Shown here: piece after piece, positions 4,636-59,922 of the stretch
How positions within the stretch are numbered: position 1 is the first letter of the stretch
How the letters are laid out: each line of letters opens with the position of its first letter
NCBI GenBank assembly: GCA_963741195.1
Contig: CAVUHF010000010.1
Coordinates: forward strand, 181,436-245,435
Length of the DNA stretch: 64,000 nucleotides
DNA from: Candidatus Acidiferrales bacterium
Lineage (GTDB): Bacteria > Acidobacteriota > Terriglobia > Acidiferrales > UBA7541
Direction: 5' to 3'
Program-made: the position numbers and the translations under genes
Notes under the pieces: model-generated
Database searches by the model: none
Told to the model about the DNA's origin: nothing
Seen by the model: only the letters and a program-made list of their open reading frames with translations

Positions 4636-7002
4636 ATGGCGCCACCATTCTTTCGCAGATTCTTCGGTCAAAAAAAGCGCGGCGGCGAGGTAGCGTCGCG
4701 GAGCACTGGAGTTACTGAAAAAAGTCTTGTTAAATCGGAGATGCCATCCACTGATGTAGCTAATCAAGAAGACAGAAACTCTTTGGATTCCGGTTCTGCC
4801 GATACCGGGGCCATGCCAAACGTAAATTCCCTTTTCGCCTTTGTAGATCCGAAGGATCCGTTTACGCCTGGTGAAATTGCAGGCGAGCAGCTACCCGGTC
4901 CGATATTGTCGATCATGAGTGCCAAGCAGTTCCATCATCTCTTCCTCTTTCATACTCCGCATACGCGAAAGCACGCAGTCGCGACGGAAAAAGAAGTGTC
5001 CAGCAGATATCCCGGGTGCCAGATCGTTGTGAACGAACTGCCCATTTCCGACCCGAAAGACTACTCGTCGGTGATGGGCCGCTTGGCGCGAACGGTACGA
5101 AGATTGATGAACCTGAGACCGTCGGAGATCGCGGACTGCTACGTTTGTGTTTCCAGCGGCACGGCAGAAATGAGAGCTGCGTGGTTTCTACTCGCTGCGC
5201 TGGGGGTTTTGCCGGCGAAGATGCTGCAAGTCGGATCACCGGCAAGGCCACTCTTCGGGGAGGCTAACGTAAAAGAAGTGCGGATGGATTCCAGCGATTG
5301 GCGAACAATTCTTGACCTTGCAATGCCCGATGAGTATTTCCGGGCTGGTGCACGAGAATCGTTCACGAAACCCGGGCCGTCGCACATACAGGCGAGAGGA
5401 GCGGGAATACCATGGTGGGTGCAGCGAAGGGCAAAGAAGCTCGACGAAAAACCCAAGGCTGGCGCGGAAACGTTTGGCTTAGACAAAGCCTTTGAGGAGC
5501 GGATGCGGATGCTATATGGGGACGCCTTGCCCGACTTCCTCTTGCCATGCCTGAGCGAAAAGGTTCGACGAAATAAAGTTTTCACCGCCGTATTTTCTCC
5601 CGACGAGCTACAGGATTTTGCGCAAGAGGTTTTTAAAAAATTCGCTGCGGCCCTTCGCCGGGAAGGTGGGGGTAATCACCCGGAGCGTTTCGAAACTCTA
5701 GCTAACTCCGTCTGTAACGACGTTTTAGTGGGCTTTTGCCAGTCTTACGGCCAGACCCAGTCGACGGAAGATTCTGACGAGCATTTGAGTGCGCTAAAGC
5801 TCACGCGAAAGCAAGTGGAGGCTCTGCGACGAGCGAGGGGGGACTCAAAACTAGTGGCGCTTGCTCGTCAGAATCTTCCGTCGAGGAAAGGACCGGCAGA
5901 AGCGGCCGAACAAGTACCGACAGAGACTGGAGAACACAAAATTATTTCGGGCGGGCCCGCGAGTCGGGAAACCTCATCGCTTGGAGAGGCAAGAAGTCTG
6001 ATTGGCCGTGAAACACCGTCAATTGCAGGCCTTGACGATGCCCTACGGGAGTTGGGGATTTTTATCGGCTCCGCGGCTCTGCGACATGCTGCGGAACAAG
6101 CGGGCATCGCCGCGGGAAGTCATCTACCAGTTCTTCTTTTGGGCGAAACAGGGACCGGCAAGGAGCGCATTGCGCACCTGATTCACAGGCTGAGTCCACG
6201 GTTTCATCGCCAGCTGGTGGCGGTCAATTGCGCGGCTATTCCGGCGACGCTCGCTGAAAGCTATCTCCTGGGCCACGTAAAGGGAGCGTTCACCGACGCG
6301 ACGACCGACGGGAAGGGGATTTTTGAGGCTGCCGACCAGGGCACGCTGTTTCTGGACGAAATCGCGGAACTAAATCTGGAAGTGCAAGCCAAGCTGCTGC
6401 GGGTTATTCATGATGGCGTAGTGCAGCGGCTCGGAAGTACCGCGCTACGCAAGGTCGATGTGCGAATCATCGCGGCGAGCAACCGCGACCTCAGGAAAGA
6501 AGTGTCCGCAGGGCGATTTCGTGAGGACCTCTATTTCCGCCTGGAAGTTGTGCAGATTAAACTGCCGGCGTTGCGCGAACGCCGGGGCGAGATTCCTGAG
6601 CTGGCGCTCATGTTGCTCAGGGAAATCAATCAGCGAAGGGAACGGCCTCACCAGCTCACGACCAGGGCTCTGGCGCGTCTTGAGCATCAACCGTGGCCTG
6701 GAAATGTTCGCGACCTCTTGAACGTACTGGAAAGGTCTGTGCTCTATTCGCGCGCAGATGTTATCGACGCTGAGGACCTGAAGTTTAATTGCGACCCACA
6801 GGGGAACGATCCTTTCGCAGCGTTGCCGGAACCATCTGATGGATTCAAGGTCGAGGAGTATCTGGCACAAATACGGAACCAGCTCTTTCTGCGAGCCCTT
6901 GAGGCCTGCAAAGGCAATCAAACGGCAGCCGCGGGGCTGTTGGGCGTTTCCAAGCAGGCGGTCAGCAAGTTTGTGCTTGGGCAAAATGACAATGAAAATT
7001 GA
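4636..7002 (+). CDS. sigma54-dependent enhancer-binding protein with N-terminal CARF/RtcR-like domain, ECF-sigma region-2-like insert, AAA+ and Fis-type HTH
   Basis: Walker A GETGTGKE, GAFTDA loop, Walker B LFLDEI, RIIAASNRDL, FREDLYFRL, WPGNVRDL, C-terminal NQTAAAGLLGVSKQAV. N-terminus has DPF..GPILSI, DPKDY and VSSGTAEMRAAWFLL (CARF-like). Alternative start ATG 4813. Confidence 0.88.
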   Translation: MAPPFFRRFFGQKKRGGEVASRSTGVTEKSLVKSEMPSTDVANQEDRNSLDSGSADTGAMPNVNSLFAFVDPKDPFTPGEIAGEQLPGPILSIMSAKQFHHLFLFHTPHTRKHAVATEKEVSSRYPGCQIVVNELPISDPKDYSSVMGRLARTVRRLMNLRPSEIADCYVCVSSGTAEMRAAWFLLAALGVLPAKMLQVGSPARPLFGEANVKEVRMDSSDWRTILDLAMPDEYFRAGARESFTKPGPSHIQARGAGIPWWVQRRAKKLDEKPKAGAETFGLDKAFEERMRMLYGDALPDFLLPCLSEKVRRNKVFTAVFSPDELQDFAQEVFKKFAAALRREGGGNHPERFETLANSVCNDVLVGFCQSYGQTQSTEDSDEHLSALKLTRKQVEALRRARGDSKLVALARQNLPSRKGPAEAAEQVPTETGEHKIISGGPASRETSSLGEARSLIGRETPSIAGLDDALRELGIFIGSAALRHAAEQAGIAAGSHLPVLLLGETGTGKERIAHLIHRLSPRFHRQLVAVNCAAIPATLAESYLLGHVKGAFTDATTDGKGIFEAADQGTLFLDEIAELNLEVQAKLLRVIHDGVVQRLGSTALRKVDVRIIAASNRDLRKEVSAGRFREDLYFRLEVVQIKLPALRERRGEIPELALMLLREINQRRERPHQLTTRALARLEHQPWPGNVRDLLNVLERSVLYSRADVIDAEDLKFNCDPQGNDPFAALPEPSDGFKVEEYLAQIRNQLFLRALEACKGNQTAAAGLLGVSKQAVSKFVLGQNDNEN

Positions 7003-7008
7003 CCGCGC

Positions 7009-7091
7009 GACAACCACCGTTGTCACGATCAGGTTTTCCGTAAGCGTAAGTAGTTGATTCTGCAAATAGTATGATTTGGTCCGCCGCGTGC
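7009..7091 (+). promoter_or_regulatory. Candidate sigma54 promoter module: UAS palindrome, IHF site, -24/-12
   Basis: GACAAC-cacc-GTTGTC (7009-7024); reverse complement of 7047-7059 is AATCAA-CTAC-TTA, matching WATCAANNNNTTR; TTGG(7078-79)-10 nt-GC(7090-91). Confidence 0.6.
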
Positions 7092-7118
7092 CTTTAGTAC
7101 CCAAGAGGCACAGAATAT

Positions 7119-8111
7119 ATGCGGACCTTGCAAGAAGAATTCTCACAAATTGAAATCGGTCGATCTTCGGAGTTCCGTAATCTCATCCTGTTTCCATTGA
7201 TGCGTAGAAGCACACCCTTCCAACCGTTGGACTATCTTCTCTTGGAAGAGGGGATAGCCCAAGGAAAAGTCCGCGTGACCGAGCTTCACGCAGGCGGAAC
7301 GGTCCCGGAGTTACGTCTTGAAAATAATGCGGACCTTCCGGTGTTGCTGGTGGACGGAGAGGAACTCGTCGGAGCGAAGCAAAACCGCGTCCTGAACCTG
7401 ACGATTCTCGCGCCGGCGAACCATACAACCGTGATTCCCGTTTCTTGTGTTGAGGCAGGGCGCTGGAGAATGGAGTCTATGGATCTGAAGGTCGCCGAGC
7501 ACCTCATGTATTCGTTGGGGCGTGGAGAACGAGTGACGCAGGTCACGGCCTCCATGCGTTCGAATGGCACGCGCAAATCTGACCAGGGAGCGGTGTGGAG
7601 AAACATCGCCTCCAAAGCGACGCGCCTCAAGGCGTCGTCGCCAACTGGCGCCATGTCCGCGATCTATGAGCGCCACGCCAGTTCGGTTGAGGAATTCGCT
7701 CGCGCATTCACCTGGCAGGAAGGTCAGTGTGGAGTAGCGTTCGCGATCGGTGGCCGAATTCTTGGTTTGGAAATGTTCGATTACCCAGAAGTGATGTACA
7801 AATTCTTCCAAAAACTAGTCCGGAGCTACGCTCTGGATGCCCTGGATGCAACTCTAGTAAGGAACGAACCGGCAAGCGTCGAAGCGGTGTGTGCGCTTGT
7901 AACTCAAATCGGTGCGGCCCGGAGTTTCACGGAGCAGGCCTTGGGAATTGGAAAAGATGTTCGGTTCACCGGCCCGGAAATTTATGGTGCGGCTCTCTGG
8001 GCACACGAGCGCTACGTACACATTTGCGCCTTCGCAAGGAGTGGCAATAGTTGCGACGCTCCTAATTTTTGGACGCGGATAACTCGCCCCAGCCACCGCC
8101 GCACGTTTTGA
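7119..8111 (+). CDS. ARPP-1 / DUF6569 family protein
   Basis: GTVPELRLENNADLPVLLVDGEELVGAKQNRVLNLTIL, IPVSCVEAGRW, SDQGAVW, KLVRSYALDAL: motifs I recognise from this family. Confidence 0.75.
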   Translation: MRTLQEEFSQIEIGRSSEFRNLILFPLMRRSTPFQPLDYLLLEEGIAQGKVRVTELHAGGTVPELRLENNADLPVLLVDGEELVGAKQNRVLNLTILAPANHTTVIPVSCVEAGRWRMESMDLKVAEHLMYSLGRGERVTQVTASMRSNGTRKSDQGAVWRNIASKATRLKASSPTGAMSAIYERHASSVEEFARAFTWQEGQCGVAFAIGGRILGLEMFDYPEVMYKFFQKLVRSYALDALDATLVRNEPASVEAVCALVTQIGAARSFTEQALGIGKDVRFTGPEIYGAALWAHERYVHICAFARSGNSCDAPNFWTRITRPSHRRTF

Positions 8112-10946: not shown

Positions 10947-12209
10947 ATGAGCATGCATATCAGCGAAAACGCTCAGATGGCGCTCACCACGCTGCGTGAG
11001 AATAAGATGCGTTCTTTTCTGACCGTCCTCGGCGTCGTCATCGGCATTACCGCACTGCTCAGCGTGGTCTCCATTCTGGTGGGCGTCTATAGCAATGTGA
11101 ATGATTACTTATCCGACTATGGGCCCGAAACTTTGTTCATATTTCGCTTCGATCCGGGAATTCATACGGGGCGGCTCTCACCCGAAGAACGCGACCGCAA
11201 AACTCTCAGCTTTGAAGATGCCGAGGCCATCAGGCAGTTCTGTCCGGCCGTGCGCGCCGTCACGGCAAGCCTGTACCCGCGTTTTGTCGAGGACGGGCCG
11301 CAGACAGGGCCCGTTACCGCGCGCTATCTGAGCAAGGAAGTCTCCGGCATCGACTACAACGGGACGCTTCCTTCCACGGAGGAAGTCTTCAATTCCAGAC
11401 CTCGGCGCGGACGATTTTTCAGCGACGCCGAAAACCTGCACCGCGCCGATGTCGCCTTGATTGGCTCGGATATTGCCAAGAGCTTATATCCAGATATGGA
11501 TCCGCTGGGAAAGCCCATCATGATCAATGGCGTATCCTACGAGGTCATCGGGGTCCTTGAGCCGCGCAAGGGCGGCTTCGTCAAAGATCAATCCGCCGAC
11601 AAAGCGGTGATGGTCCCGTATCGCTCCTATCACAAGCACAACCCGCAGGACGACGAGAATTTCATCGGCGCCGTTGCTTATCCCGGAAAGATGGCCGAAG
11701 CAGAAGACCAGATCCGCGCCGTGTTGCGCCGCCGCAGAGCCGTGCCGTATAACAAGCCCGACAATTTTGGTATCTCCAGCGCACAGCAGATCGCCGACCA
11801 GTTTCGCCAGATTACCGCGTCGGTCGCCTTGTTGATTTCCGTCATCAGCTCGATCGGGCTTCTTGTTGGCGGCGTTGGCGTAATGAACATCATGTTGATG
11901 TCCGTCACGCAGCGTACTCGTGAAATCGGCGTGCGCAAAGCCATCGGTGCGCGGCGCCGCGATGTCATCTGGCAATTCCTGACCGAAGCGGTTGTCCTGA
12001 CAGGCGCGGGAGGCGTAATCGGCGTACTGCTCGGTGGCGGAATCAGCCTACTGATCAACCTTTTCGTGCCGAGCCTGCCTTCCTCCATTCCTCTCTGGGC
12101 CATAATTCTGGCCGTGGCTGTTTCCATGAGCGTCGGCCTGTTCTTTGGGATGTATCCCGCGATAAAAGCGGCTCGTCTCGATCCCGTCGAAGCCTTGCGC
12201 TACGAGTAA
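10947..12209 (+). CDS. MacB/FtsX-family ABC transporter permease
   Basis: KMRSFLTVLGVVIG; GGVGVMNIMLMSVTQRTREIGVRKAIGAR; GMYPAIKAARLDPVEALRYE. Confidence 0.92.
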   Translation: MSMHISENAQMALTTLRENKMRSFLTVLGVVIGITALLSVVSILVGVYSNVNDYLSDYGPETLFIFRFDPGIHTGRLSPEERDRKTLSFEDAEAIRQFCPAVRAVTASLYPRFVEDGPQTGPVTARYLSKEVSGIDYNGTLPSTEEVFNSRPRRGRFFSDAENLHRADVALIGSDIAKSLYPDMDPLGKPIMINGVSYEVIGVLEPRKGGFVKDQSADKAVMVPYRSYHKHNPQDDENFIGAVAYPGKMAEAEDQIRAVLRRRRAVPYNKPDNFGISSAQQIADQFRQITASVALLISVISSIGLLVGGVGVMNIMLMSVTQRTREIGVRKAIGARRRDVIWQFLTEAVVLTGAGGVIGVLLGGGISLLINLFVPSLPSSIPLWAIILAVAVSMSVGLFFGMYPAIKAARLDPVEALRYE

Positions 12210-12253
12210 GCAGTCTGCGCTCGAGGAGTCGCTGGACACCTCGCCGCAAGCAG

Positions 12254-12282
12254 TGGACTTGGAGACTTTCCCTACATATGAT
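12254..12282 (+). promoter_or_regulatory. Candidate sigma70 promoter of the corrinoid/MttB operon
   Basis: TGGACT(12254-12259)-17 nt-TATGAT(12277-12282), about 170 nt upstream of ATG 12452. Confidence 0.45.
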
Positions 12283-12451
12283 TAGGGCACGCTCCCGGGC
12301 TTCTTCATTCGAGGTACACGTCGCGGCCCGCTTGTGGCAGAGACGGAATTCTCTTCCGCAATGATGTTCCATCGGAACAACTCTCAACCTGATTAGAAGA
12401 GTGTGCGCATCCGCTTTGCCTAAAATAGACCGCACGCGAGGTCGAACTCTC

Positions 12452-13102
12452 ATGCCCGACGAGCTTCTCGAATTGATGAAGCAGTCCATCCTGGAAGGCG
12501 ATCCCGATCGGGCCAGAGCACTCAGCCTGCGAGCCGTCGCAGAAGGCATGAACCCGCTGGACGCAATCAATCACGGCTTCGTTCTGGGGTTGCGCGCTGT
12601 TGGCGAGCAATTCGAACAAGGAGAAATGTTTCTTCCGGACCTGGTCCTCGCGGGCGAAGCGATGAAAGCCGCAACCACCGTTTTGGAGCCGGAAATCGAT
12701 AAGATCGGCGCGACCCGCAAGTCGCTCGGAAGGGTTGTGCTCGGCACGGTGAAAGGCGACATACACGAAATTGGAAAGACTTTGGTGGGCACGATGCTGA
12801 CCGCCAACGGCTTCCAGGTTTTCGACCTCGGCGTTGATGTGTCTGGTGAGGACTTCGCACGAAAGGCCGCGGAACTCGACGCGAACATCGTCGGACTTTC
12901 CGCGCTGTTGACCACCACCATGACTGGACAGAAAGATGTGGTCGAAGCTCTCGCGCGCCAGGGACTGCGCCCGCAAGTGAAAGTCATGATCGGCGGAGCC
13001 CCGGTCACCCAGAGCTGGGCCGATGAAATTGGCGCCGACGGCTATGGGAAAGATGCACAGGCTGCTGTGGCCCTGGCAAAAAGTCTGACGGGCAAGTGCT
13101 AA
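12452..13102 (+). CDS. Methyltransferase cognate corrinoid (B12-binding) protein, MttC/MtbC-like
   Basis: Cap domain GEMFLPDLVLAGEAM; B12 motif GDIHEIGK, SALLTTT, VMIGGAPVT. Confidence 0.92.
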   Translation: MPDELLELMKQSILEGDPDRARALSLRAVAEGMNPLDAINHGFVLGLRAVGEQFEQGEMFLPDLVLAGEAMKAATTVLEPEIDKIGATRKSLGRVVLGTVKGDIHEIGKTLVGTMLTANGFQVFDLGVDVSGEDFARKAAELDANIVGLSALLTTTMTGQKDVVEALARQGLRPQVKVMIGGAPVTQSWADEIGADGYGKDAQAAVALAKSLTGKC

Positions 13103-13120
13103 CTCTGCAAGAAAGTCGGA

Positions 13121-14581
13121 TTGGGATTACGCATGCAGCCGAGTCTTTTACTTCTTGAACCGCAATTGATCGACCGAATTCTTGGCGAGGCCTTTGCGCT
13201 GATTTCCGAGCGCGGCGTCTCCGTGCAGGCGCAGGCAGCGATCGAACTGCTCGCAGCCGGCGGCGCCCGCATTGAGAACGGCTCGGCGCACCTTCCGGAG
13301 TCGCTCGTCCGTTGCGCCCTGGAAACAGTACCCCGCGAGTTCTCGCTCTACAACCGTGCCGGCCAACCCGCCGTGAGGTATGGCGGAAATAACGTGCAGT
13401 TCGACCCCGGTTCTTCCTGTGTGCACATCCTTGACCCAGACACGCTGGAACACCGTATGACCCTGGCGCCAGATCTGGTGAGGCTCATCCAGGTTGCGGA
13501 AATGCTTCCGCAATTCGCAGCGCAGTCGACTGCCGTGGTTTGCACGGAAGTAACTAAAACCATCGGCGATCTATTCCGGCTCTTCGTCGTACTCCTCTAT
13601 TCCAACAAACCGATCGTGACCGGAGCGTTCTCACCGCACGCCGCCCCGGTGATGATTGAAATGCTCGCGATAGAGAGCGGAGGGCTCGTCGGTTCGCGAG
13701 CGAAGCCTCGCGCCATCTTCGACGTTTGTCCGTCGCCGCCGCTGCATTGGACGGAATTCGCCGCGCAGAATTTAGTTGATCTTGCGCGCGCCTGGGTTCC
13801 CGCGGAAATCATATCGATGCCAATCGCGGGCGCGGCTTCGCCAGTCACGCTTGCGGGAAGCATCGTGCAACACGCCGCGGAATGTCTCAGTGGAATCACG
13901 ATTCACCAGCTGGCGCAGCCTGGCGCCCCCGTCGTGTGGGGCGGCGCACCGTCTATTTTTGACATGCGCAGTGGCATTACGCCAATGGGCTCGATGGAAA
14001 CCTGCCTATTGAATGTCGCATCGGCGCAGGTTGCAAAATCCTTGGGCTTGCCGACACACGGCTACCTGATTGGCAGCGACGCAAAGACCGTCGATGCGCA
14101 GGCCGGTCAGGAAAGTGGAATTGCGGCGGTGATGGGCGCGCTGGGTGGAATCAATATGATTTCCGGAGCCGGTATGTTGGACTCGCTGGCCTGCCATAGT
14201 GCGGAGAAACTCGTTCTCGATGCCGAATCGATTGCCATGGCGCAACGTCTGCTTCGAGGAGTGCAAGCGGGCACAGAATCACTGGCTCTCGACATGTTCG
14301 CAAAGCTAGGCGCGCAGGGTGACTTTCTGAAATTGCCGGTAACCCGAAAGCTGTTCCGTCTGGAGCAGCACATTCCGGCAAAAGTGATTGATCGCGGCTC
14401 TCTCAACTCGTGGGAGCAATCGGGAAAGAAAGATGCATTCGCGCAAGCGAAGGAAAGGGTCAAGGAACTCGTCGCTGCATACAAGCGCCCGGAGTTGCCG
14501 CCGGACGTGGAGCAACACTTGCGGAGCATTGTTCAGGAACTAGCAACACGCGAAGACATGGAACACGTACCGGTCGTCTGA
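13121..14581 (+). CDS. MttB-superfamily amine:corrinoid methyltransferase, non-pyrrolysine
   Basis: SPPLHW, MPIAGAASPVTLAGSIVQHAAECLSG, FDMRSG, SDAKTVDAQAGQES, GAGML, EKLVLD; no in-frame amber codon. Confidence 0.9.
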   Translation: MGLRMQPSLLLLEPQLIDRILGEAFALISERGVSVQAQAAIELLAAGGARIENGSAHLPESLVRCALETVPREFSLYNRAGQPAVRYGGNNVQFDPGSSCVHILDPDTLEHRMTLAPDLVRLIQVAEMLPQFAAQSTAVVCTEVTKTIGDLFRLFVVLLYSNKPIVTGAFSPHAAPVMIEMLAIESGGLVGSRAKPRAIFDVCPSPPLHWTEFAAQNLVDLARAWVPAEIISMPIAGAASPVTLAGSIVQHAAECLSGITIHQLAQPGAPVVWGGAPSIFDMRSGITPMGSMETCLLNVASAQVAKSLGLPTHGYLIGSDAKTVDAQAGQESGIAAVMGALGGINMISGAGMLDSLACHSAEKLVLDAESIAMAQRLLRGVQAGTESLALDMFAKLGAQGDFLKLPVTRKLFRLEQHIPAKVIDRGSLNSWEQSGKKDAFAQAKERVKELVAAYKRPELPPDVEQHLRSIVQELATREDMEHVPVV

Positions 14582-14602
14582 ATTCGTAATCGTGAGAATA
14601 CT

Positions 14603-15325
14603 TTGCCAATGACCATCACTCCACTCATTCCGGGACAGACAGAGATCCGCAGGAACTGGCAATTTACGGTCACGGCGGACATGGTATTGCAAAGACAAGG
14701 AGCAAATGCCCGCAACGTCCGTCAGCGGCAGCCGCGCTTGGTCGCACTGGCGGAAAAAGCGATCGCCGAGGGGCAATCGTGGATCCGGCCTGAAGTTGCC
14801 TATCGAATTCTGAAAATTCAGGAAGTTAGACCGGCGCTCGTGATTTTGGCCAATGGGATGGAATTAAGAGGTTCCGGCGTCGCGCAAAAGCTCGCTGGAG
14901 CGGAGTTTGCGATTGCGGGCGTAGCAACGGTTGGGGCACAGATTGAACGACAAATCTTAGAGGCCACGAAGGCGGATCCCACGTATGCACTCGCCCTGGA
15001 CGGGTATGCGACGGCAGCTGTAGGTGCATTGATCATCGAGTTCAGACGATATTTTGCGGACCTTGCCGAGGGAGGGCAACTAACTACTACGACTCCTCTG
15101 TACCCTGGCACGAATGAATGGGAGCTGGCTCGAGCGCAGACCGAACTGTTCTCGCTCGTCAATGCTGCGGCCATCGGCGTGAAACTCACCGCATCGTTTC
15201 TGATGACGCCATGTAAGTCGGTCTCAATGGTAATGGGAGCAGGAGTAAAGATGCCGAGCGCGCGGGAGCCCTGCGAAGAATGCGGGGCCTCGTCAACTTG
15301 CCGTCACAAACTATCGGATCCATAA
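14603..15325 (+). CDS. Stand-alone B12-dependent methionine synthase activation (SAM-binding) domain-like protein
   Basis: ATVGAQIE, ALDGYATAAV, PG..W.L..Q..LFSL, IGVKLTASFLMTPCKSVSMVMG and a C-terminal CxxC..C. Confidence 0.78.
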   Translation: MPMTITPLIPGQTEIRRNWQFTVTADMVLQRQGANARNVRQRQPRLVALAEKAIAEGQSWIRPEVAYRILKIQEVRPALVILANGMELRGSGVAQKLAGAEFAIAGVATVGAQIERQILEATKADPTYALALDGYATAAVGALIIEFRRYFADLAEGGQLTTTTPLYPGTNEWELARAQTELFSLVNAAAIGVKLTASFLMTPCKSVSMVMGAGVKMPSAREPCEECGASSTCRHKLSDP

Positions 15326-15330
15326 AAACG

Positions 15331-16233
15331 CTAGAGATGCGGTTGAACAGCGCCCGCAACCTTTGTGCAGAAGACTGGCTGTTGCGCCAGCGCCCGAATG
15401 AACTCTGGCGTTGTGCCGCAGCAGCCGCCTAGAAACGTAGCACCGGCCTCAACCAGTTCCTGGGCCGAATCCGCGAACTCCGAAGGCGACGTCTTGTACC
15501 GCGCAAGACCATTGGCGATCTCCGGCAACCCAGCATTCGGCTTGATCCAGATCGGCAACGTGGTGACCGTAGCAAGGCGCCGGCAAACCGGAATGAAGTC
15601 GCGAATTCCCAGTCCACAGTTTGCTCCAATCCCATGAACGCCGTCACTCGTCAGAGCAGTCGCTGCCTGTTCTGGCGTGATGCCCATGATCGTCCGGTCG
15701 CGATTTTTGCCGGAGTCAAATACCAGTGAAACAATTACGGGTAGCCTCGTCTCCAGCGCCGCAGCGGCCGCAATGCGGGCTTCAGCAAGGTCGGTGATCG
15801 TCTCGATCAGCAGTGCATCGGGATCTTCTGAAGCAAGTGCGCGAGCCTGTTGCGAAAATATCTCCCTCAATTGCTCCTCGTTCACTTCTTTCGTCAGCAG
15901 CATTTTTCCGCTCGGCCCCATCGAGGCGAATACCATTGCCGAATCGCCCGCGGCTTGTCGCGAGAGTCTGACCGCGGCGCGGTTGATGGCCTCTACATGC
16001 TCCTGTAAGCCATAGGGAGACAGGCTGATGCGATTCGCACGAAACGTGTTTGTAAGAATGACGCGGCTGCCCGCCCGAACGTAGCTCTCTGCAACTTGCC
16101 TCACCAATTCAGGTTTCATCAGATTCCACTCGTCGATGCAGCTCCCGAGCGCCGCGCCCAACTTCTGAAACTCCGTCCCCCACGCTCCGTCCGTGAGCGT
16201 AACCGTTCCCCGCATGCAACCCGCGAACCGCAT
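15331..16233 (-). CDS. Homocysteine S-methyltransferase (MetH N-terminal domain) family protein
   Basis: LTDGAWGT, AGSRVILTNTF, Zn ligands in GANCG and GGCCGTTP, KPNAGLP; GAGGAGG RBS. Confidence 0.92.
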   Translation of the reverse strand: MRFAGCMRGTVTLTDGAWGTEFQKLGAALGSCIDEWNLMKPELVRQVAESYVRAGSRVILTNTFRANRISLSPYGLQEHVEAINRAAVRLSRQAAGDSAMVFASMGPSGKMLLTKEVNEEQLREIFSQQARALASEDPDALLIETITDLAEARIAAAAALETRLPVIVSLVFDSGKNRDRTIMGITPEQAATALTSDGVHGIGANCGLGIRDFIPVCRRLATVTTLPIWIKPNAGLPEIANGLARYKTSPSEFADSAQELVEAGATFLGGCCGTTPEFIRALAQQPVFCTKVAGAVQPHL

Positions 16234-16280
16234 TCCGCCGCCTCCTCGGACGCTACCGCCCTGTAAGTATATAAGGAGAA

Positions 16281-18710
16281 CTATTCGTACCGCAGCGCTT
16301 CCAGCGGATCGATCTGGGTTGCCTTACGCGCTGGTACGTAACTCGCAACCACGGATACGGCGATCAGCAGCACAGGCACGCTCACAAATACCAACGGATC
16401 CGTCGCGGTCACCCCGTAAAGCATCCCGCCCAAAAGTCGCGTCACCTGGAAGGCCGCCGTCAGCCCGACAGCGGCGCCCATCAGCGAAGGTACCAGCCCG
16501 CGGCCGACCACCAGCCGGAGAATCTGCCATTGGTTCGCGCCCAGAGCCGTTCGCAGGCCAATCTCATGCGTACGCTGGCTCACGGAATAGGCCGTCAAGC
16601 CGTAGATTCCTACTGTCGCCAGCATCAAGGCCAAACCCGCAAAGACACTGATCATCAGCATCGACACGCGGCGCAGCATCAGCGAATCCGACAGCACCTT
16701 GTCCATCGTGCGCACATCAGAAATCGGCTGCTCGGCATCCAGCTTCAGAATCTCGCCTCTTACCGCAGCGGTCATCGCCGCCGGATCGCCCTGCGTGCGC
16801 ACCACCAGGCCCATGTCGGAATGAGGATCCTGCGTATACACCGCATAAATGGCGGGCTCTACTGCCGCGTCCAGCCCATATAGTTTCGCGTCGGTCACGA
16901 CTCCTACGATCTCCCACGGCGCACCTCCGGTCAGAATTTCTTGGCCGATTGGATTTTCACCTGCGAAATGGCGCCGTACCATGGCTTCATTCACGATGGC
17001 TACACGTTTCGAATCCAGCGTGTCGTGCTCGTCGAACCACCGGCCTTGCCGTAGAGCGATTCCCATGGTGTCGAAATACCCTGCCGTCACTGGGCGGTAG
17101 TCCGCCAACGGCTGCTCATTGTCGGGGATGGCAGCGCGCCCTTGAATCTGGAAACGCGTCACGCCAATGCGGAACGAAAGAATCGAGACGCGCAGCGGCA
17201 AGAACTGAACGGCACCCGCCGATCGCACGCCCGGCAGCACCTGCAAACGTTCCATGAGTGTCTTGAAGAATGTCATCCGCTGCTGCCGCGTTGGGTATTT
17301 CACTTCTGGCAGGCTAAGGTTCATCGTCAGAATATTCTCTGTTCTTAACCCCGGGTCAACGCTCATCACCCGCACGAAACTCCGCACCAACAATCCCGCG
17401 CTCACCGAGAGCAGCACGGCCACCGCCACTTCCGACGCCAGCAGCGTTCCACGAATCCGTTGCGACCCTCCCGCGCTATTTGAGCGGCCGCCCGCTTCCT
17501 TCAGCGTGGTGTTCAATTCCATGCGCGACGCCTTCAACGCCGGGGCCAGTCCGAACAGCAGGCACGTCGAGATGCACATCCCAAACGTGAACGCCAACAC
17601 CCGCCAATCGATGGTCATCTGTTTCATCGTCGGAAACATGTCCGGGATCACGCCGCGCAACAGGCGCACGCTGATCGCGGCCAGTATTAGCCCCAGCAAT
17701 CCGCCGGCCAACGCCAGCACCAGGCTCTCTGTCATTAACTGCCGCACGATGCGCAACCGACCTGCACCCATAGCCTCGCGGATGGCGATTTCCTTTTGTC
17801 GCGCAGCAGCACGGGCAAACAGGAGATTAGCCAGGTTGGCGCAAGCGATTAATAGCAGCAATCCCACTGCGCCCAAAAGCACCAGCAGCACTGGACGTAT
17901 CCGGCCGCTGTACATTTCCGCCATCGGAAACAGCCGCACTCCCCATCCCGAATTCGTTGTCGGATATTCTTGCTCCAGTCGCTGGGCGATCAGCACCATT
18001 TCCGCGCGCGCCTGTTCCACCGAAACACCCGGTTTTAGCCGCGCCACGATACCGTAATTGTGATTTCCTCGCTGGCTGTGGCTGGGGTCAACGGCTGTCG
18101 GCAGCCACAGGTCCGCGGCCACCATATCGCTTACTTCGTGTGGGACGACTCCGACAATCGTTCGCGGAACGCCGTTCACCGTCAGCGTTTGTCCCACTAC
18201 GGTTGGATCCGAGTGAAATTTTCGCTTCCACAGTCCCTGACTGATGATCACAGCGGGTGGGCCTCCGGGCCGATCCTCGTCTGGCAGAAAATTCCTCCCA
18301 ACGATTGGATTGAGGCCCAGCACTGGCAGAAATTCTTTCGAGCACATCGCCGCCAAAACACGCTCTGGCTCGCCCGACCCGCTGATATTCAATCCGTATT
18401 CTGGAATCGCAAACGCCGCGGACATATTCTCGAATGAGTGAGCTTGCTTCTTCCAATCCAGATAATCATCAGGGGAAACCGGCATCTGGTCGAAGCCAGA
18501 TTTCAGCAGCGTCTGCCAAATCATTACCACGCGGTCGGGTTCGGGTACGGGAAGCGGCTTCAGCAATACCGCATTCACCCCGGTGAAGATGGCGCTGTTA
18601 GGGCCAATGCCTAACGCCAGCGCAAATATGGCTACGGCGCTGAATCCCGGATTCCGGAGGAGCGACCGGAAACCATAGCGAAGGTCCTGCCAAAAGAACT
18701 GCACAAACAC
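16281..18710 (-). CDS. ADOP-type duplicated ABC/MacB permease (orphan)
   Basis: QDLRYGFRSLLRNPGFS, ALGIGPNSAIF, LLIACANLANLLFARAAARQKEIAIR, second half GIYGLTAYSVSQRTHEIGLRTALGA; ends DPLEALRYE. Confidence 0.92.
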   Translation of the reverse strand: MFVQFFWQDLRYGFRSLLRNPGFSAVAIFALALGIGPNSAIFTGVNAVLLKPLPVPEPDRVVMIWQTLLKSGFDQMPVSPDDYLDWKKQAHSFENMSAAFAIPEYGLNISGSGEPERVLAAMCSKEFLPVLGLNPIVGRNFLPDEDRPGGPPAVIISQGLWKRKFHSDPTVVGQTLTVNGVPRTIVGVVPHEVSDMVAADLWLPTAVDPSHSQRGNHNYGIVARLKPGVSVEQARAEMVLIAQRLEQEYPTTNSGWGVRLFPMAEMYSGRIRPVLLVLLGAVGLLLLIACANLANLLFARAAARQKEIAIREAMGAGRLRIVRQLMTESLVLALAGGLLGLILAAISVRLLRGVIPDMFPTMKQMTIDWRVLAFTFGMCISTCLLFGLAPALKASRMELNTTLKEAGGRSNSAGGSQRIRGTLLASEVAVAVLLSVSAGLLVRSFVRVMSVDPGLRTENILTMNLSLPEVKYPTRQQRMTFFKTLMERLQVLPGVRSAGAVQFLPLRVSILSFRIGVTRFQIQGRAAIPDNEQPLADYRPVTAGYFDTMGIALRQGRWFDEHDTLDSKRVAIVNEAMVRRHFAGENPIGQEILTGGAPWEIVGVVTDAKLYGLDAAVEPAIYAVYTQDPHSDMGLVVRTQGDPAAMTAAVRGEILKLDAEQPISDVRTMDKVLSDSLMLRRVSMLMISVFAGLALMLATVGIYGLTAYSVSQRTHEIGLRTALGANQWQILRLVVGRGLVPSLMGAAVGLTAAFQVTRLLGGMLYGVTATDPLVFVSVPVLLIAVSVVASYVPARKATQIDPLEALRYE

Positions 18711-18776
18711 TCCTTAGATATGTGCAGAGTAACATACCGCTTTGTCGAATTGTTTTCGCGAGAGGTAGGCACCCCT

Positions 18777-19145
18777 ATGAATGAGTTTTCCTTTCAACTG
18801 TGGCTCGAAGCGTACGGCCGCACTTGGGAAAACCGCGACCCTCAAGCCGCCGCCAAACTCTACGCAGACGGCGGCACTTATCAGCTCACGCCGTTTCTTG
18901 AACCGCTTCGCGGGAGCCAGGCTATTCTCGACTACTGGACGGAAGTGGCTACCACCGAAAAGGACATCTCCTTCGGTTTCGAAATCCTGGCGGTTACAGA
19001 ACAATTCGGAATCGCCCGGTGGCACGTTTCCTTCTTCCGGACGCCTCAGGGCCTCAACACCAAATTCGACGGAGTCTCGTTGATCAGTCTGAACGCGGAC
19101 AGCAAATGCGTTTCACTCCGCGAGTGGTGGCACAAGCAACAGTAG
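18777..19145 (+). CDS. NTF2/SnoaL-like fold protein
   Basis: WLEAYGRTWENRDP..AAKLYADGGTY...PF...LRG..AILDYW...CVSLREWW. Confidence 0.75.
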   Translation: MNEFSFQLWLEAYGRTWENRDPQAAAKLYADGGTYQLTPFLEPLRGSQAILDYWTEVATTEKDISFGFEILAVTEQFGIARWHVSFFRTPQGLNTKFDGVSLISLNADSKCVSLREWWHKQQ

Positions 19146-19149
19146 CGAC

Positions 19150-21972
19150 TTAGTCGCGGTCGCGCTTTCCTTGCGCCGCTTTCGTTGACGGCGAAGGAGG
19201 AAACACCGCGAACTTTGGCGCCGGCATCGGCACCGCACCCATTCGGTCTTCCCACAAAAACTTATTCAGCACCACCGTATCCACCGCGTCGGCATGCTTG
19301 AAATCCAGATTCCTGCCTTCTTTCCATTCTTTGGTATTGATCTGGTACAGCAGACCATTGTCGCGGTTCCGGAAGTCCGCGGTGAACGGCGCTTGCGTGC
19401 CCGGCCCGCTGAAAAGCGGCGCCATTACCGCCGCGCGGGAATCGTTCGCGTTCATCGGCGGCACGTCCAGCAGCGCCTCTATCGTGCGCACCATATTTAC
19501 GGTTGTATAGAAATGGTGTTCCACGAACGGAGCAGACTTCCCCACACCTCCTTTCCCTGACGGCGCGTACTTGCTAATCACCAGCGCCGTGCTGCGATGC
19601 GAATCGATGTGATCGGGTCCGTCCTGCGCGTCGTCCTCCAGAATCAAGATCGCCGTGTCATCCCAATACGGGCTGTGTGATATCGCGTCTACCACGCGTC
19701 CCACAGCCAGGTCGTTGTCCGCTACACTCGCAGCAGGCGCGGGCGACCCTTTTGTGCCCCCGAGCGTGTGATCGTTGGGCAGCCGCAAAAGAATGAACTG
19801 CGGCATCGTGTCCTTGCCCGCGTGACGCGACGCTAGAAATCCGTGGAATTCGTTCAGGAATTCGTCGGTGCGCAATTGATCCGGGTAGGAGACCTCAAAA
19901 TCCGGAAACGCTGGATCGAAGTGCCCGCGAAGCTCCACTTCTCCCGCAATATTTTTTGCCAGTACCGGAATGTCCCACGGATACGGGCTCGCGCTGCCGT
20001 GTGGCGCCCCTACATTCTTCTCCAGCGGCTCGCCCTTCTTGATCACCTTGCGAGCGCAAGCGACACCCGCAACCTTGGGCGGGCCGGTTACCGCTACTTT
20101 CGCATTCTGCGGCTCGTTGCACCACCTCGATACGATGAATTCTCCGTAATGCCGGTAGGTAATCCCGTGTTTTGAGAAATTCTTCCACAGATAACCTCCC
20201 GTGGGCTCTTCGGCATCCGGCAATTCATCCTCGACAGCGATCCCGTTCAAGAGTTGACCTTCCGAATCGTAGGTATGCTCGTGCCCACGATAGCCGATGG
20301 GCCAGGTCTTCTCCACATAATCGGAAATCGATGCTGACGTGGACCAAACGTGCCCGTCGCCCGAAACGTCACCACTATCATAGAAATTGTCCAGAATCCC
20401 GAACTGTCGCGCCAACTTGTGCTGGTTTGGCGTAATGTCTTGGCCATACATCGTGATGGATGGATCGCCATTCGCTTCGGCGATGTCGCCGAGAACCTGA
20501 TCGTACGTGCGATTCTCCTTAATGATGTAAATTACGTGCCGAATCTTGTTTTCGCCGCCCGCAAACGGGATTTTGTCCGTGTTCCCTTGCGAGGCATTCG
20601 TCGCCATCACCTGCTCTGTCCAGCTTGCCAACTTCGTTTTCAATTCGGCCAGCGGAATCCGGGCCAGCGAACCGTGGGTCATTGCCGGATTATAGGGATA
20701 TTCCGGCTGTCCGTCTTGCCCCAACTTCAGCAATTTTGGATTCGGTCCGGAGCCGCGGCCTTTCGCGCTGCCAATCAGCAAGTCATTCGCCGTAGCCGCA
20801 ACTACCGTGGGATACCACTCAGTTGGAATAAACCCCATCGCACGCAGTGGCGACTCCGCCGTAGGGTTGCTCACATCGAATACCGCAATAGAGTCCGAAA
20901 TCGCATTGGCGGAAAACAGTGTCTTCTCATCGGCGCTCAGCGACAGATATTCCGGATCGCTTCCCCCGTATCTCTGGCCTGGCAGTTTGGTGGAAAGCGT
21001 GTAACTCACTTTACCACTCTTCGTATCCAGGACTTCGATCTCGTCCCGATTCGTCAGCGCCACGAACAGCCGGGAATCATCGTGGCTCAGCAGCAGCGCG
21101 GTGGGATGCGAACCTCCCTCAAGCGGCACTGTCGGTTTGCGCAGGGGAATGATGCGACGCACACGCCCTAGAGCAAGATCAAGCTCCGCTACCGCCGAAG
21201 CATTCCACAAGGAAACGAATCCGTGCTTCCCGTCGCCGCTCATCACCGTCGCGTACGGCAGCGAACCAGGAATCCTCTTGAATGTAGAGAGGTCAAACCT
21301 CTGCACGATGTGGCCATCGGAGCAATTGAGCAGAATCGCCTCGTCCGAATTGTCACTCGCCACCAGGATGCGCTCCTCGCCCCCGCTCATTCCCAGACTC
21401 AGCCCCGCGGGATACGTCACGTCCGTGAATTCGTCGCGACGCACCTTACCTTGGGGCAATTTCACACGCGGCGGCAAAGCAAAGAAACGTTCCGGAGTCA
21501 CCGTGCCCTCTAGGAACGCGTATACCGCGATCCCGTTGCCGGTATTTCCCTCGTGCTTCCCGAGTGGATCGGTAAGCGACGCCATCGAGGCATACAGATG
21601 CTGTCCATCGCGGCCGAACGCTAATCCAAGAAAATACGATTGCTTTGCATCGCTGCCCAGCCGGTCATCTGGAAAATCCCGCAGCGCATTTGTCACCAGG
21701 TTCAGCACGGAGATCGATTGTTTTTCCCCAGAGCTATACGCCCCATAGCCGCTATGGAGCAGCACGGCGTACTTACCGTCGGGTGAAATCAACGCCGCCG
21801 TTGGGAAATTATTGGTCTCTCGCGGATTCCCAGGCACTTCGTCCAAGAATTTTGCGTTGGGCAACTGGGTCGGCGCGGTCGCGGAAGGGACTTTCTGGGC
21901 GAACAAAGAAATTGGCGGGGCAAATAGAATCAGTATGAGAATGGATCGGATCAGCCTGTGATAGCGGCGCAT
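19150..21972 (-). CDS. Secreted YVTN/YncE beta-propeller fused to phosphoesterase (alkaline phosphatase-like) domain
   Basis: Signal peptide, propeller repeats (HPTALLLS, IPTEWYP), HVIYIIKENRTYDQVLGD, LPNDHT, ILEDDAQDGPDHIDSHRS. Confidence 0.88.
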   Translation of the reverse strand: MRRYHRLIRSILILILFAPPISLFAQKVPSATAPTQLPNAKFLDEVPGNPRETNNFPTAALISPDGKYAVLLHSGYGAYSSGEKQSISVLNLVTNALRDFPDDRLGSDAKQSYFLGLAFGRDGQHLYASMASLTDPLGKHEGNTGNGIAVYAFLEGTVTPERFFALPPRVKLPQGKVRRDEFTDVTYPAGLSLGMSGGEERILVASDNSDEAILLNCSDGHIVQRFDLSTFKRIPGSLPYATVMSGDGKHGFVSLWNASAVAELDLALGRVRRIIPLRKPTVPLEGGSHPTALLLSHDDSRLFVALTNRDEIEVLDTKSGKVSYTLSTKLPGQRYGGSDPEYLSLSADEKTLFSANAISDSIAVFDVSNPTAESPLRAMGFIPTEWYPTVVAATANDLLIGSAKGRGSGPNPKLLKLGQDGQPEYPYNPAMTHGSLARIPLAELKTKLASWTEQVMATNASQGNTDKIPFAGGENKIRHVIYIIKENRTYDQVLGDIAEANGDPSITMYGQDITPNQHKLARQFGILDNFYDSGDVSGDGHVWSTSASISDYVEKTWPIGYRGHEHTYDSEGQLLNGIAVEDELPDAEEPTGGYLWKNFSKHGITYRHYGEFIVSRWCNEPQNAKVAVTGPPKVAGVACARKVIKKGEPLEKNVGAPHGSASPYPWDIPVLAKNIAGEVELRGHFDPAFPDFEVSYPDQLRTDEFLNEFHGFLASRHAGKDTMPQFILLRLPNDHTLGGTKGSPAPAASVADNDLAVGRVVDAISHSPYWDDTAILILEDDAQDGPDHIDSHRSTALVISKYAPSGKGGVGKSAPFVEHHFYTTVNMVRTIEALLDVPPMNANDSRAAVMAPLFSGPGTQAPFTADFRNRDNGLLYQINTKEWKEGRNLDFKHADAVDTVVLNKFLWEDRMGAVPMPAPKFAVFPPSPSTKAAQGKRDRD

Positions 21973-58227: not shown

Positions 58228-59883
58228 CTACATTCCCTCGTAGTTCGGGCCGCCACCGCCTTCGGGGACAGTCCAGTCGATAATCTGATAGGGGTCAGCG
58301 ATGTCGCAGGTTTTGCAGTGCACGCAATTGGCGGCATTAATCTTCAATTTTGATCCCCCGCTTTCGTTGACCATTTCATACACCGCCGCAGGGCAAAAAT
58401 ATTGGCACGGGTTGCCGTACTCCTCGGCGCACCGCGTTGAACAGATATTTAGGTCGTGCACTTTCAAATGGCAAAGCTGATCTTCTTCGTGTCTCGTTCC
58501 GGAATGATAGACGTCGGTCAAGCGGTCAAACGTCAGTTTGCCATCGCCCTTAAATCGTTCCGGCGCCGGACGCCCGTGGATTTGCGTATAGGCCTCACAC
58601 CCTGCGTGCGCGTGCATCGGGTCCACCAGCCCTCGGCCCCCGGAAATCTGCTGCAATCCTGAGAGCACCAGCCCATCGAACAATCCATTGTGGAAAGACT
58701 GGTGAAAGTTGCGGACTTTCCAGAGTTCGTCCTTGATGTAACTGTGATCGATCTTCTCTTTGTAGAGCTTTAGCGTCTTTGACGAAGTGTCCTCCGACTT
58801 CAGTGCCGCGAAAATCGTCTCCGCCGCGAGCATGCCGCTCTTTATCGCCAGGTGTACGCCCTTCAGCCGCTGCGAGTCCAGGAAGCTTCCTGAATCGCCA
58901 ACGATCAATCCCCCATCCACGTAATTTCGCGGCATCGCGTACCAACCGCCATACGGCAGCGACTTCGCGCCGTAACGCACCATCTTCCCGCCTTCAAGTA
59001 ACTCGCGCAAATACGGATGCGTCTTCCAGTACTGAAACGCGGCGTGAGGGTCGAAGCGCGAATCCGCGTATTCCAAGGCAACGACCAGCCCGATGGAGAC
59101 CCGATTGTTGCTGAAGCCATAGATCCAGCCGCCCCCATACATCTTCGTCGACAACGGCCAGCCAAGCGTGTGTGCGACAAATCCAGGCTTGATCTTTCCG
59201 GGCTGCACTTCCCACAATTCCTTGATGCCGATTCCGTAACTCTGCGGATTGAGATTGTCGAGTTTCTTATTCGCCACCAATTGCTTGGTCAGCGAGCCAC
59301 GCGTGCCCTCTGCTAGCACGGTTACCTTCGCTCGCAGCTCATATCCTGGCGTGTAGTTGTCTTTCGGTTTCCCGTTTTTGTCCACGCCCTTGTCTTCGGT
59401 TATGACGCCGGCTATTCCGTTACCTTCATAAATCAGCTCCGCCCCTCCGAATTCCTTAAACAGATTTACGCCGGCTGATTCCACCAGACCGCCCATCCAC
59501 CGCACCAGCTTGCTTAAGGAAATGACGTAATTCCCTTTATTGTTGAACGGCGGCGGGGTAATGGGAATGCGGTAGGAAGAGTTTTTCGTAAAGATCAGTG
59601 CTGCCGAATCGGTGACCGGGGTATCCAGAGGAGCGTCCTTCTCAAAATTGGGCACCAGTTCAGCGAGTGCCTTCGGGTTCATGATCGCGCCGGAGAGTTG
59701 GTGCGCGCCTATCTCTCGACCCTTCTCCAGCACGTAAATGTTTTCCGCGGAGAGCTCCGGCTTCGCCTCACTGGCGTTATGTTTCTGAATGAGGTTGGCC
59801 AGGTGCAGCGCGCAACTCAGTCCAGCCGGCCCGGCACCGACGATCAGGACATCCGCTTCCAGTTGTTCTCTTTGGATTGCCAT
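58228..59883 (-). CDS. Electron transfer flavoprotein-ubiquinone oxidoreductase (FixC-FixX type)
   Basis: VGAGPAGL, LSGA, KGVHLAIKSG, C-terminal CPAAVY..CVHCKTCDIADP. Confidence 0.94.
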   Translation of the reverse strand: MAIQREQLEADVLIVGAGPAGLSCALHLANLIQKHNASEAKPELSAENIYVLEKGREIGAHQLSGAIMNPKALAELVPNFEKDAPLDTPVTDSAALIFTKNSSYRIPITPPPFNNKGNYVISLSKLVRWMGGLVESAGVNLFKEFGGAELIYEGNGIAGVITEDKGVDKNGKPKDNYTPGYELRAKVTVLAEGTRGSLTKQLVANKKLDNLNPQSYGIGIKELWEVQPGKIKPGFVAHTLGWPLSTKMYGGGWIYGFSNNRVSIGLVVALEYADSRFDPHAAFQYWKTHPYLRELLEGGKMVRYGAKSLPYGGWYAMPRNYVDGGLIVGDSGSFLDSQRLKGVHLAIKSGMLAAETIFAALKSEDTSSKTLKLYKEKIDHSYIKDELWKVRNFHQSFHNGLFDGLVLSGLQQISGGRGLVDPMHAHAGCEAYTQIHGRPAPERFKGDGKLTFDRLTDVYHSGTRHEEDQLCHLKVHDLNICSTRCAEEYGNPCQYFCPAAVYEMVNESGGSKLKINAANCVHCKTCDIADPYQIIDWTVPEGGGGPNYEGM

Positions 59884-59922
59884 CGCGGCATTTTACCAAA
59901 CAACCGTTTGGGATGTATGTGC

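Follow-up and report, generated by a model that had tools for sequence, protein, structure and literature searches.

A four-gene module of soil and peat Acidobacteriota that may relay methyl groups from an MttB-family enzyme through a corrinoid protein to homocysteine

A conserved module predicted to make methionine from a methylated donor

We analyzed a 64-kb stretch of DNA from a Candidatus Acidiferrales bacterium (Acidobacteriota; contig CAVUHF010000010.1 of assembly GCA_963741195.1, positions 181,436 to 245,435), hereafter called the window, in which four adjacent genes at 12452-16233 encode a corrinoid (B12) carrier protein, an MttB-superfamily methyltransferase, a stand-alone protein with the fold of the activation domain of the methionine synthase MetH (ACT), and a zinc homocysteine S-methyltransferase (HcyMT) (Table 1). 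The reading that we hold to be fairly probable is a relay in which methyl groups would pass from the MttB-family enzyme to the carrier and on to HcyMT, yielding methionine, with ACT repairing carrier that has fallen into the Co(II) state. The steps of this mechanism are all drawn from the chemistry of the respective families, and the linkage of the genes was shown by comparative genomics. A small methylated compound would serve as the donor, from which the MttB-family enzyme would transfer a methyl group to the corrinoid of the neighboring carrier in its Co(I) state; HcyMT would then pass it from the methyl-Co(III) carrier to the homocysteine thiolate held on zinc. When the corrinoid is accidentally oxidized to Co(II), ACT would bring the carrier back into use by docking on it or uncapping it so that it can be reduced, and a tail with three cysteines may take part. 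We regard such docking or uncapping as more likely than classical remethylation dependent on S-adenosylmethionine (SAM, AdoMet), because the AdoMet motif is gone from ACT and its relatives travel with the activase RACo; this maintenance step is the least certain part of the mechanism. A preliminary description of this DNA had recognized a DIHEIG carrier, an MttB, a MetH-type activation domain and a convergent HcyMT with GANCG and GGCCG motifs at these positions, and all of these domains and motifs were found.

Table 1. Coordinates in the window of the four module genes and of the promoter-like match upstream
Feature	Coordinates	Strand	Evidence
Corrinoid (B12) carrier protein, 216 aa	12452..13102	+	PF02607 and PF02310, motifs
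Non-pyrrolysine MttB-superfamily methyltransferase, predicted methyltransferase 1 (MT1)	13121..14581	+	PF06253; probable ATG 13133, 482 aa
Stand-alone activation-domain-fold protein (ACT), 238 aa, TM0269-like	14609..15325	+	Family profile, AlphaFold model, Foldseek
Zinc homocysteine S-methyltransferase (HcyMT), 300 aa, predicted methyltransferase 2 (MT2)	15331..16233	-	PF02574, Cys motifs
Sigma-70-like promoter match TGGACT-17-TATGAT	12254..12282	+	Weak evidence

The module recurs with different flanks, in different gene orders and in different phyla

Genomes were scanned at one genome per species, and 79 loci were obtained. The closest all lay in metagenome-assembled genomes (MAGs) that came from soils, fens and peat in Denmark and belong to Candidatus Acidoferrales or other Terriglobia (Acidobacteriota). 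By tblastn with the four window proteins, the order corrinoid-MttB-ACT followed by a convergent HcyMT gene was present in 21 complete loci (L003-L011, L013-L022, L024 and L025) and in two further loci cut by contig ends (L023 and L035), and ACT identity across the Acidoferrales and Terriglobia loci went down to 42%. Only five of these loci (L006-L009 and L015) have the flanking genes of the window in common with it, indicating that the module is conserved as a unit and not by mere general synteny. The claim of a conserved functional unit made up of the four genes was thus borne out by these complete and truncated loci, most of them with different flanks.

Other arrangements were found in more distant genomes. 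Two further Acidobacteriota loci (L059 and L081) have MttB-ACT-corrinoid-HcyMT on a single strand, with an MttB identity of 41-43%. In four Anaerolineae loci (L032, L038, L040 and L041), a gene for an uninterrupted, non-pyrrolysine MtmB-family protein (PF05369) precedes corrinoid-HcyMT-ACT-RACo, and in two of these (L032 and L041) a methionine-salvage gene of the IF-2B/MtnA family comes next. A non-pyrrolysine MtmB homologue has recently been implicated in the use of tetramethylammonium and choline (PMC13044021). Because the module recurs in loci that vary in flanks, in gene order and in phylum, the four genes appear to be functionally linked, and their grouping seems far beyond chance. The constant core would be ACT plus HcyMT, usually with the carrier, and the donor enzyme appears exchangeable. 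There is strong genomic evidence that the methyl group used by HcyMT would come from the corrinoid protein, fed in turn by the MttB-family enzyme.

One of the two truncated loci lies in a Chloroflexota MAG ('Limnocylindrales'), where a 2.7-kb contig (L035:87-2754) carries an Acidoferrales-type corrinoid-MttB-ACT cluster with 73-74% protein identity to the window. This cluster reflects either horizontal transfer or mis-binning.

The carrier and the homocysteine methyltransferase

The carrier matched the B12-binding cap (PF02607, E = 3e-20) and the Rossmann B12 domain (PF02310, E = 5e-29). It has the His-on ligand motif DIHEIG at residue 103, SAL at 150 and GG at 181, and an alternative GTG start lies at 12401. 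Among NCBIfam models, it scored over the cut-off of TIGR02370 (methyltransferase cognate corrinoid protein; 221.9 bits, cut-off 215.3) and under those of two MtgC models (238 bits against NF047995, cut-off 310; 184 bits against the second, cut-off 370), while the MetH model gave only 145 bits. The carrier appears to be closer to MtgC-type carriers than to the B12 module of MetH.

HcyMT matched PF02574 at 235 bits and carries the zinc-ligating cysteine motifs GANCG (residue 203) and GGCCG (residue 269). Its best NCBIfam match was the N-terminal domain of the YitJ-type model PRK08645 (259 bits). Further scores, all under the respective cut-offs, were 175.5 bits for the BHMT-type PRK07534, 160 for MetH, whose model covers residues 11-284, and 107 for the MmuM type. 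Because the score against the alphaproteobacterial PRK07534 is far under its cut-off of 338, HcyMT shares the domain of the Ruegeria protein MtgE but would be no orthologue of it.

The MttB-family enzyme has lost the glycine betaine site

The donor enzyme matched PF06253 at 300 bits (E = 3e-89). Its reading frame has no in-frame stop, and so no pyrrolysine is expected. Against TIGR02369 it scored 349 bits, under the cut-off of 525, that is, without an equivalog-level match to the pyrrolysine-type MttB. Matches among Protein Data Bank (PDB) entries were MtgB (9yce and 2qne, E = 1e-52) and MttB (7xcl), and the window enzyme was roughly equidistant from Desulfitobacterium hafniense MtgB, Methanosarcina barkeri MttB and the Sinorhizobium meliloti homologue 4YYC; its C-terminal half scored 173 bits against pyrrolysine MttB and 135 bits against MtgB. 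Alignment to M. barkeri MttB placed Gly318 at Pyl334 and Ser348 at Tyr364.

Mutagenesis and a substrate-bound structure have established that MtgB binds glycine betaine through Y97 and F356 by cation-pi contacts and through R312 and H348 at the carboxylate, and R312 is conserved across all characterized MttB-family members, every one of which acts on an acidic quaternary amine (Picking et al., 2026; PMC13080624). Y97, R312, H348 and F356 correspond to S98, H313, S348 and L356 in the window enzyme. None of the four glycine-betaine-binding residues is kept, and we therefore rejected its identification as an MtgB, or glycine betaine:corrinoid methyltransferase. The same four residues were found in each of 10 Acidoferrales-type orthologues, in which the surrounding motifs DPGSSCV, LPTHGYL, MISGAG and LDSLAC(H/Q) were also alike, bar two single substitutions. 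At the four positions, S, E, Q and S occur in the MttBs of L055, L059 and L081. The donor is probably none of glycine betaine, carnitine, proline betaine, butyrobetaine and phosphocholine, and probably not an acidic betaine or other acidic quaternary amine at all; the preliminary description had rightly left the substrate unnamed. Furthermore, Cys100, His313, Cys358 and His359 lie at or beside the substrate-binding positions of MtgB. The first three were unchanged in all 10 orthologues, and His359 was replaced by Gln in one (L013). That these residues might form a metal-binding site is speculation.

A sub-threshold match to the Rfam family PYLIS_3, the pyrrolysine insertion element of mttB, lies inside the window mttB gene (window 14070-14171, + strand; 27.5 bits against a gathering score of 38, E = 0.014) and begins 2 nt ahead of the Gly318 codon, the Pyl334 position. 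It is probably a reflection of coding-sequence homology, although the 3' half of the gene is closer to mttB of the pyrrolysine type than to mtgB.

ACT belongs to a large Cys-tailed subfamily of the activation-domain fold

As a single sequence, ACT, which starts at the ATG at 14609, scored 23.4 bits against PF02965, under the cut-off of 25 and over 37 residues, and a single-sequence PDB search gave no match, so that a family profile was needed. About 80 close relatives were found, all of them annotated 'hypothetical'. A profile of 32 relatives matched Thermotoga maritima TM0269 (PDB 1J6R) with E = 5e-7, and an AlphaFold model built on the same alignment reached a pLDDT of 88.7 and a pTM of 0.86. 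The best 19 Foldseek matches of this model were all MetH reactivation domains, headed by 1J6R (E = 4e-9, TM 0.76) and followed by Thermus, Escherichia coli and human MetH. The model and the profile confirmed the MetH activation (reactivation) domain fold, and the fold assignment of the preliminary description was thus right.

The label of a SAM domain fared less well. In E. coli MetH, AdoMet is contacted by Asp946, Glu1101, Tyr1130, Arg1134, Tyr1139, Tyr1189 and Tyr1190 (PMC1282579). HMMER and MAFFT alignments anchored on the invariant Pro-Gly showed that ACT reads PLYPGT in place of the AdoMet motif RxxxGY, so that Pro163 and Thr168 stand where MetH has Arg1134 and Tyr1139. The motif is kept in TM0269 (RISPGY) and in two Firmicutes relatives encoded next to MetH, L070 (RFSPGY) and L073 (RYSPGY). 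Moreover, the Tyr1189/1190 stretch is replaced in ACT by the tail PCEECGASSTC (CxxCx5C), in which the three cysteines are invariant or nearly so; AlphaFold confidence is low over this tail. The Pro-Gly of the motif and the strand FLMxPxKSxS are conserved in the ACT family.

In an exhaustive profile search, 6,375 cluster representatives passed E <= 1e-3, and 3,283 passed E <= 1e-10. The 150 best relatives are nearly all stand-alone proteins of 200-270 residues. CxxCx3-6C was present in 135 of the 147 best relatives, PxxPGM was the commonest form of the motif, and a Tyr followed the Pro-Gly in just one of the 147. The relatives of ACT appear to form a distinct, large and uncharacterized subfamily of the activation-domain fold.

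ACT diverges much faster than its neighbors: between the window and L016-L024 its identity is 44-47%, and the corrinoid protein, MttB and HcyMT are 69-79% identical.

RACo accompanies ACT in many relatives, and pterin genes are absent around the module

Pterin methyltransferases were searched by tblastn with two queries, the pterin domain of E. coli MetH and an MtgA-like protein of Paradesulfitobacterium, together with one RACo and one DUF1638 query. Both pterin queries detected pterin methyltransferases at 27-39% identity in L027, L031, L043, L070 and L073, and with neither was a pterin-binding gene (PF00809) found in the window or up to 10 kb around the 23 orthologous loci. In the same way, no RACo/RamA gene was detected in the window, and DUF1638 was missing both there and up to 10 kb around the orthologous loci; among the related loci, DUF1638 was seen solely in L043. 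The absence of a pterin-binding domain and of a RamA or ASKHA activase, as described earlier, therefore holds for the 64 kb.

The nine sister clusters L016-L024, however, have a gene exactly between ACT and HcyMT for a 604-aa protein with Fer2, RACo-middle and RACo ASKHA domains. RACo lies beside ACT in 18 loci, including these nine, the Anaerolineae operons, L043 (Paradesulfitobacterium) and L051 (an Asgard archaeon). Since L016-L024 and other phyla carry RACo, the missing ASKHA activase would be a trait of the window locus and its nearest relatives and not of the system. Since the adjacency recurs, ACT-like proteins would be general companions of corrinoid systems and ATP-dependent activases and no hallmark of an 'aerobic' MetH.

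Two of these loci deserve description. In Paradesulfitobacterium ferrireducens (L043:275-10549), genes for MttB, a BCCT transporter, a corrinoid protein, a pterin methyltransferase, a hydantoinase-like protein, DUF1638, RACo and an ACT-like protein form one string, which has the appearance of a textbook anaerobic quaternary-amine system. Because DUF1638, RACo and the ACT-like protein are all present in this string, they co-occur and do not replace one another. In the Asgard archaeon Candidatus Borrarchaeum (L051:4266-15191), the neighbors of two ACT-like paralogues are RACo, two corrinoid proteins and a methyltransferase of the URO-D family, and through these paralogues the Cys-tailed family reaches the archaea.

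Weighing of alternative readings

Several observations weigh against the proposed relay. The protein domain most similar to HcyMT appears to be the YitJ-type N-terminal domain, for which the methyl donor is not established. Its gene lies on the strand opposite to the other three, and its start is 47 nt downstream of a gene for an 809-aa double MacB/FtsX permease (16233-16281, - strand), with which it may be co-transcribed although that gene is unrelated. On two contigs (L001; L002 = L012), an ACT-HcyMT pair stands alone, with no corrinoid protein or MttB nearby; HcyMT would thus be able to use a carrier whose gene lies elsewhere, and a pterin-dependent donor may likewise be encoded at another place in the genome. 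In addition, the module sequence was found in DNA soil metagenome runs only. If HcyMT were a B12-independent S-methylmethionine/SAM:homocysteine methyltransferase of the MmuM/YagD kind, of which stand-alone PF02574 proteins exist, its opposite strand and the permease gene ahead of it would be readily explained by a chance adjacency to an unrelated MttB operon. The MmuM-type model, however, gave the weakest of the five NCBIfam matches, and HcyMT is tied to ACT, the carrier or both in three gene orders and two phyla, including CORR-HCY-ACT on one strand. On this multi-order synteny, chance adjacency was rejected and is very improbable. It is rather unlikely, but deserves more weight, that the genes belong to a network like that of Ruegeria, in which the carrier and HcyMT would be a general split methionine synthase with a pterin subunit encoded elsewhere as its normal donor, and the MttB-family enzyme would be either a side entrance or a demethylase of catabolism that gives most of its methyl groups to tetrahydrofolate (THF). 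The solitary ACT-HcyMT loci, which use a carrier encoded elsewhere, and the ACT-like proteins adjoining pterin methyltransferases in L027, L031 and L043 are consistent with such a network. The absence of pterin genes around the window module and its 23 orthologous loci, where HcyMT is always adjacent, argues against it, and no genes for one-carbon oxidation through THF, betaine transport or demethylation were found near the module; moreover, by their NCBIfam scores, the carrier and HcyMT would be no orthologues of the alphaproteobacterial proteins. The relay from the MttB-family enzyme through the carrier to HcyMT thus remains the most economical reading of the claim that the methyl group of an N-methyl compound reaches methionine. 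The bypass of methyl-THF claimed with it, by contrast, is not demonstrable from 64 kb, the pterin subunit of Ruegeria being encoded elsewhere and essential.

With regard to the maintenance step, ACT might be a true TM0269-type AdoMet-dependent reductive remethylase that takes its electron from flavodoxin, ferredoxin or, where present, RACo. This is possible but doubtful. Its homology and fold match to TM0269 and the MetH reactivation domains speak for AdoMet use, as do the conserved Pro-Gly and FLMxPxKSxS strand. Huang's 2007 work is reported to have found that TM0269 and AdoMet are both required to reactivate TM0268. Two further points also count against our reading of ACT. An hhalign alignment with the E. 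coli MetH activation domain paired Tyr165 with Tyr1139, a register two residues off; having a probability of 21% and conflicting with HMMER and MAFFT, this register was set aside. In addition, TM0269 binds AdoMet although other MetH contacts are absent from it, and for this reason the loss of SAM use by ACT is inferred and not shown. Against AdoMet use stand the replacement of the Arg1134 and Tyr1139 contacts (PMC1282579) and of the Tyr1189/1190 region, the latter by the Cys tail. Moreover, the motif is absent from 146 of the 147 closest family representatives and survives only in the MetH-adjacent L070 and L073, and ACT-like proteins co-occur with RACo and even with DUF1638 plus RACo. Hence the MetH-type fold in the preliminary description stood, and its 'aerobic-style SAM reactivation' was not supported, given the missing RxxxGY, the Cys triad, and RACo in nine sister clusters and other phyla.

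Comparison with known systems

The concept of the relay is already published. A three-part split MetH with RamA-like and DUF1638 reactivation proteins, and with no PF02965 member, was described in Phaeobacter (Price et al., 2018; PMC5764234). The preliminary description had called a betaine-fed system merely proposed in Rhodobacterales, but it was shown genetically in Ruegeria pomeroyi, where MtgB (PF06253) is the donor enzyme, MtgE (PF02574) is the homocysteine module, and the pterin subunit MtgD is encoded elsewhere and essential (Mausz et al., 2025; PMC12478193). The same authors noted up to seven MttB paralogues per genome (PMC12478193).

The module has parts of the same kind as MtgBCDE of R. 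pomeroyi, Phaeobacter inhibens and S. meliloti, namely a PF06253 donor enzyme, a stand-alone carrier, a stand-alone PF02574 HcyMT and dedicated reactivation proteins, and its predicted logic is that of MtgBCDE, a shared B12 carrier joining amine demethylation to methionine. It differs, however, in having no pterin subunit in or near it, in the constant adjacency of its HcyMT gene, mtgE being mostly unlinked in marine bacteria, and in a donor enzyme without the glycine betaine site. Its carrier scores under the NCBIfam cut-offs for MtgC and its HcyMT under that for the BHMT type of alphaproteobacteria, its maintenance protein has the PF02965 fold and not DUF1638, RACo is not at the window locus, and it comes from Acidobacteriota of soil and peat. 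The module would thus work like MtgBCDE but appears not to be a member in the sense of orthology.

In the split MetH of T. maritima (TM0268 plus TM0269, 1J6R), a separate activation-domain protein likewise serves a B12-dependent HcyMT, and TM0269 is the best profile and fold match of ACT. TM0268, however, combines homocysteine, pterin and B12 modules in one chain, whereas the module has separate homocysteine and B12 proteins and no pterin protein; TM0269 keeps RISPGY and has no Cys tail, whereas ACT has PLYPGT and the tail. Compared with MetH in general, whole or split, the module has the PF02574 zinc barrel and the B12 cap and B12 domain with DxHxxG but no PF00809 pterin barrel.

The anaerobic systems MtgB-MtgC-MtgA of D. 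hafniense and MtpB/MtcB/MtyB/MthB of Eubacterium limosum also pair a non-pyrrolysine MttB-family MT1 with an MtgC-like carrier, the best NCBIfam match of the window carrier. RamA/RACo-type activation occurs in relatives of the module as well, L043 being such a system with an ACT-like gene. In the module, however, the acceptor enzyme is HcyMT and not the pterin-binding MtgA, and R312 is replaced by His in its MttB. By analogy, the module appears to resemble equally the MttB-MttC-MtbA systems of methanogens (with RamA), in which methyl groups go from MT1 through a corrinoid protein to a zinc thiol methyltransferase (MT2) and a thiol is the final acceptor. In contrast to these, the window MttB has no pyrrolysine, its MT2 belongs to PF02574 and not to the URO-D family, and homocysteine takes the place of coenzyme M.

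Layout and surroundings of the module

The three + strand genes are spaced as in an operon, with gaps of 18-30 nt between corrinoid and MttB genes, depending on start choice, and 27 nt between MttB and ACT genes. The ACT and HcyMT genes are convergent, with stop codons 5 nt apart. The sigma-70-like match of Table 1 is the sole one upstream of the trio and falls within the 242-nt gap behind a permease gene; the scan for promoters and terminators around the module was at chance level (one promoter site against 1.6 expected). A riboswitch search for SAM or B12 leaders over 11500-19500 found none. The flanking genes encode MacB/FtsX-type permeases, a SnoaL-like protein and a phosphoesterase, with functions unrelated to the module, and the permease neighbor of HcyMT is common only to the closest relatives, L006, L007 and L009.

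Two other groups of genes in the window were observed. At 4636-8111 (+ strand), a sigma-54 activator of the RtcR kind (PF06956, PF22208 weak, PF00158), CARF-like in its N-terminal region, is directly followed by an ARPP-1 domain protein (PF20208, 299 bits); such pairs are typical of systems predicted to act in conflict or stress. At 58228-61673 (- strand), three genes resemble, by sequence inspection only, electron transfer flavoprotein (ETF)-ubiquinone oxidoreductase and the two ETF subunits, alpha and beta; some 40 kb separates them from the module, with no link to it shown.

Implications

As homocysteine is the sole acceptor encoded, the module looks anabolic, and it likely serves auxiliary, folate-sparing methionine synthesis or methyl salvage and not bulk catabolism. 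A much bolder proposal, which we offer tentatively and would not expect to hold as a whole, is that the module is a self-sufficient, folate-independent and B12-dependent methionine synthase of Acidobacteria. Its MttB would act on a new class of non-acidic donors, with no aromatic cage and with conserved Cys and His in the pocket, and its ACT would belong to a subfamily (about 6,400 clusters at 50% identity) that works without AdoMet, the Cys tail cooperating with RACo-type activases or other reductants across bacterial and archaeal corrinoid systems.

If the relay reading is true, the link between demethylation and methionine would reach from marine Proteobacteria to the abundant Acidobacteria of soil and peat, and to Anaerolineae with an MtmB-type enzyme, in a pared-down form with homocysteine as the only recipient of the methyl group. 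The module marks an MttB subfamily whose substrate probably lies outside the known betaines, and a large, unnamed Cys-tailed family of activation-domain-like proteins accompanies corrinoid activases and bears on the upkeep of B12 enzymes. Experiments would be worthwhile on two points, which substrate this MttB subfamily uses and what the Cys-tailed family does, and the compact four genes would be a convenient unit for heterologous tests.

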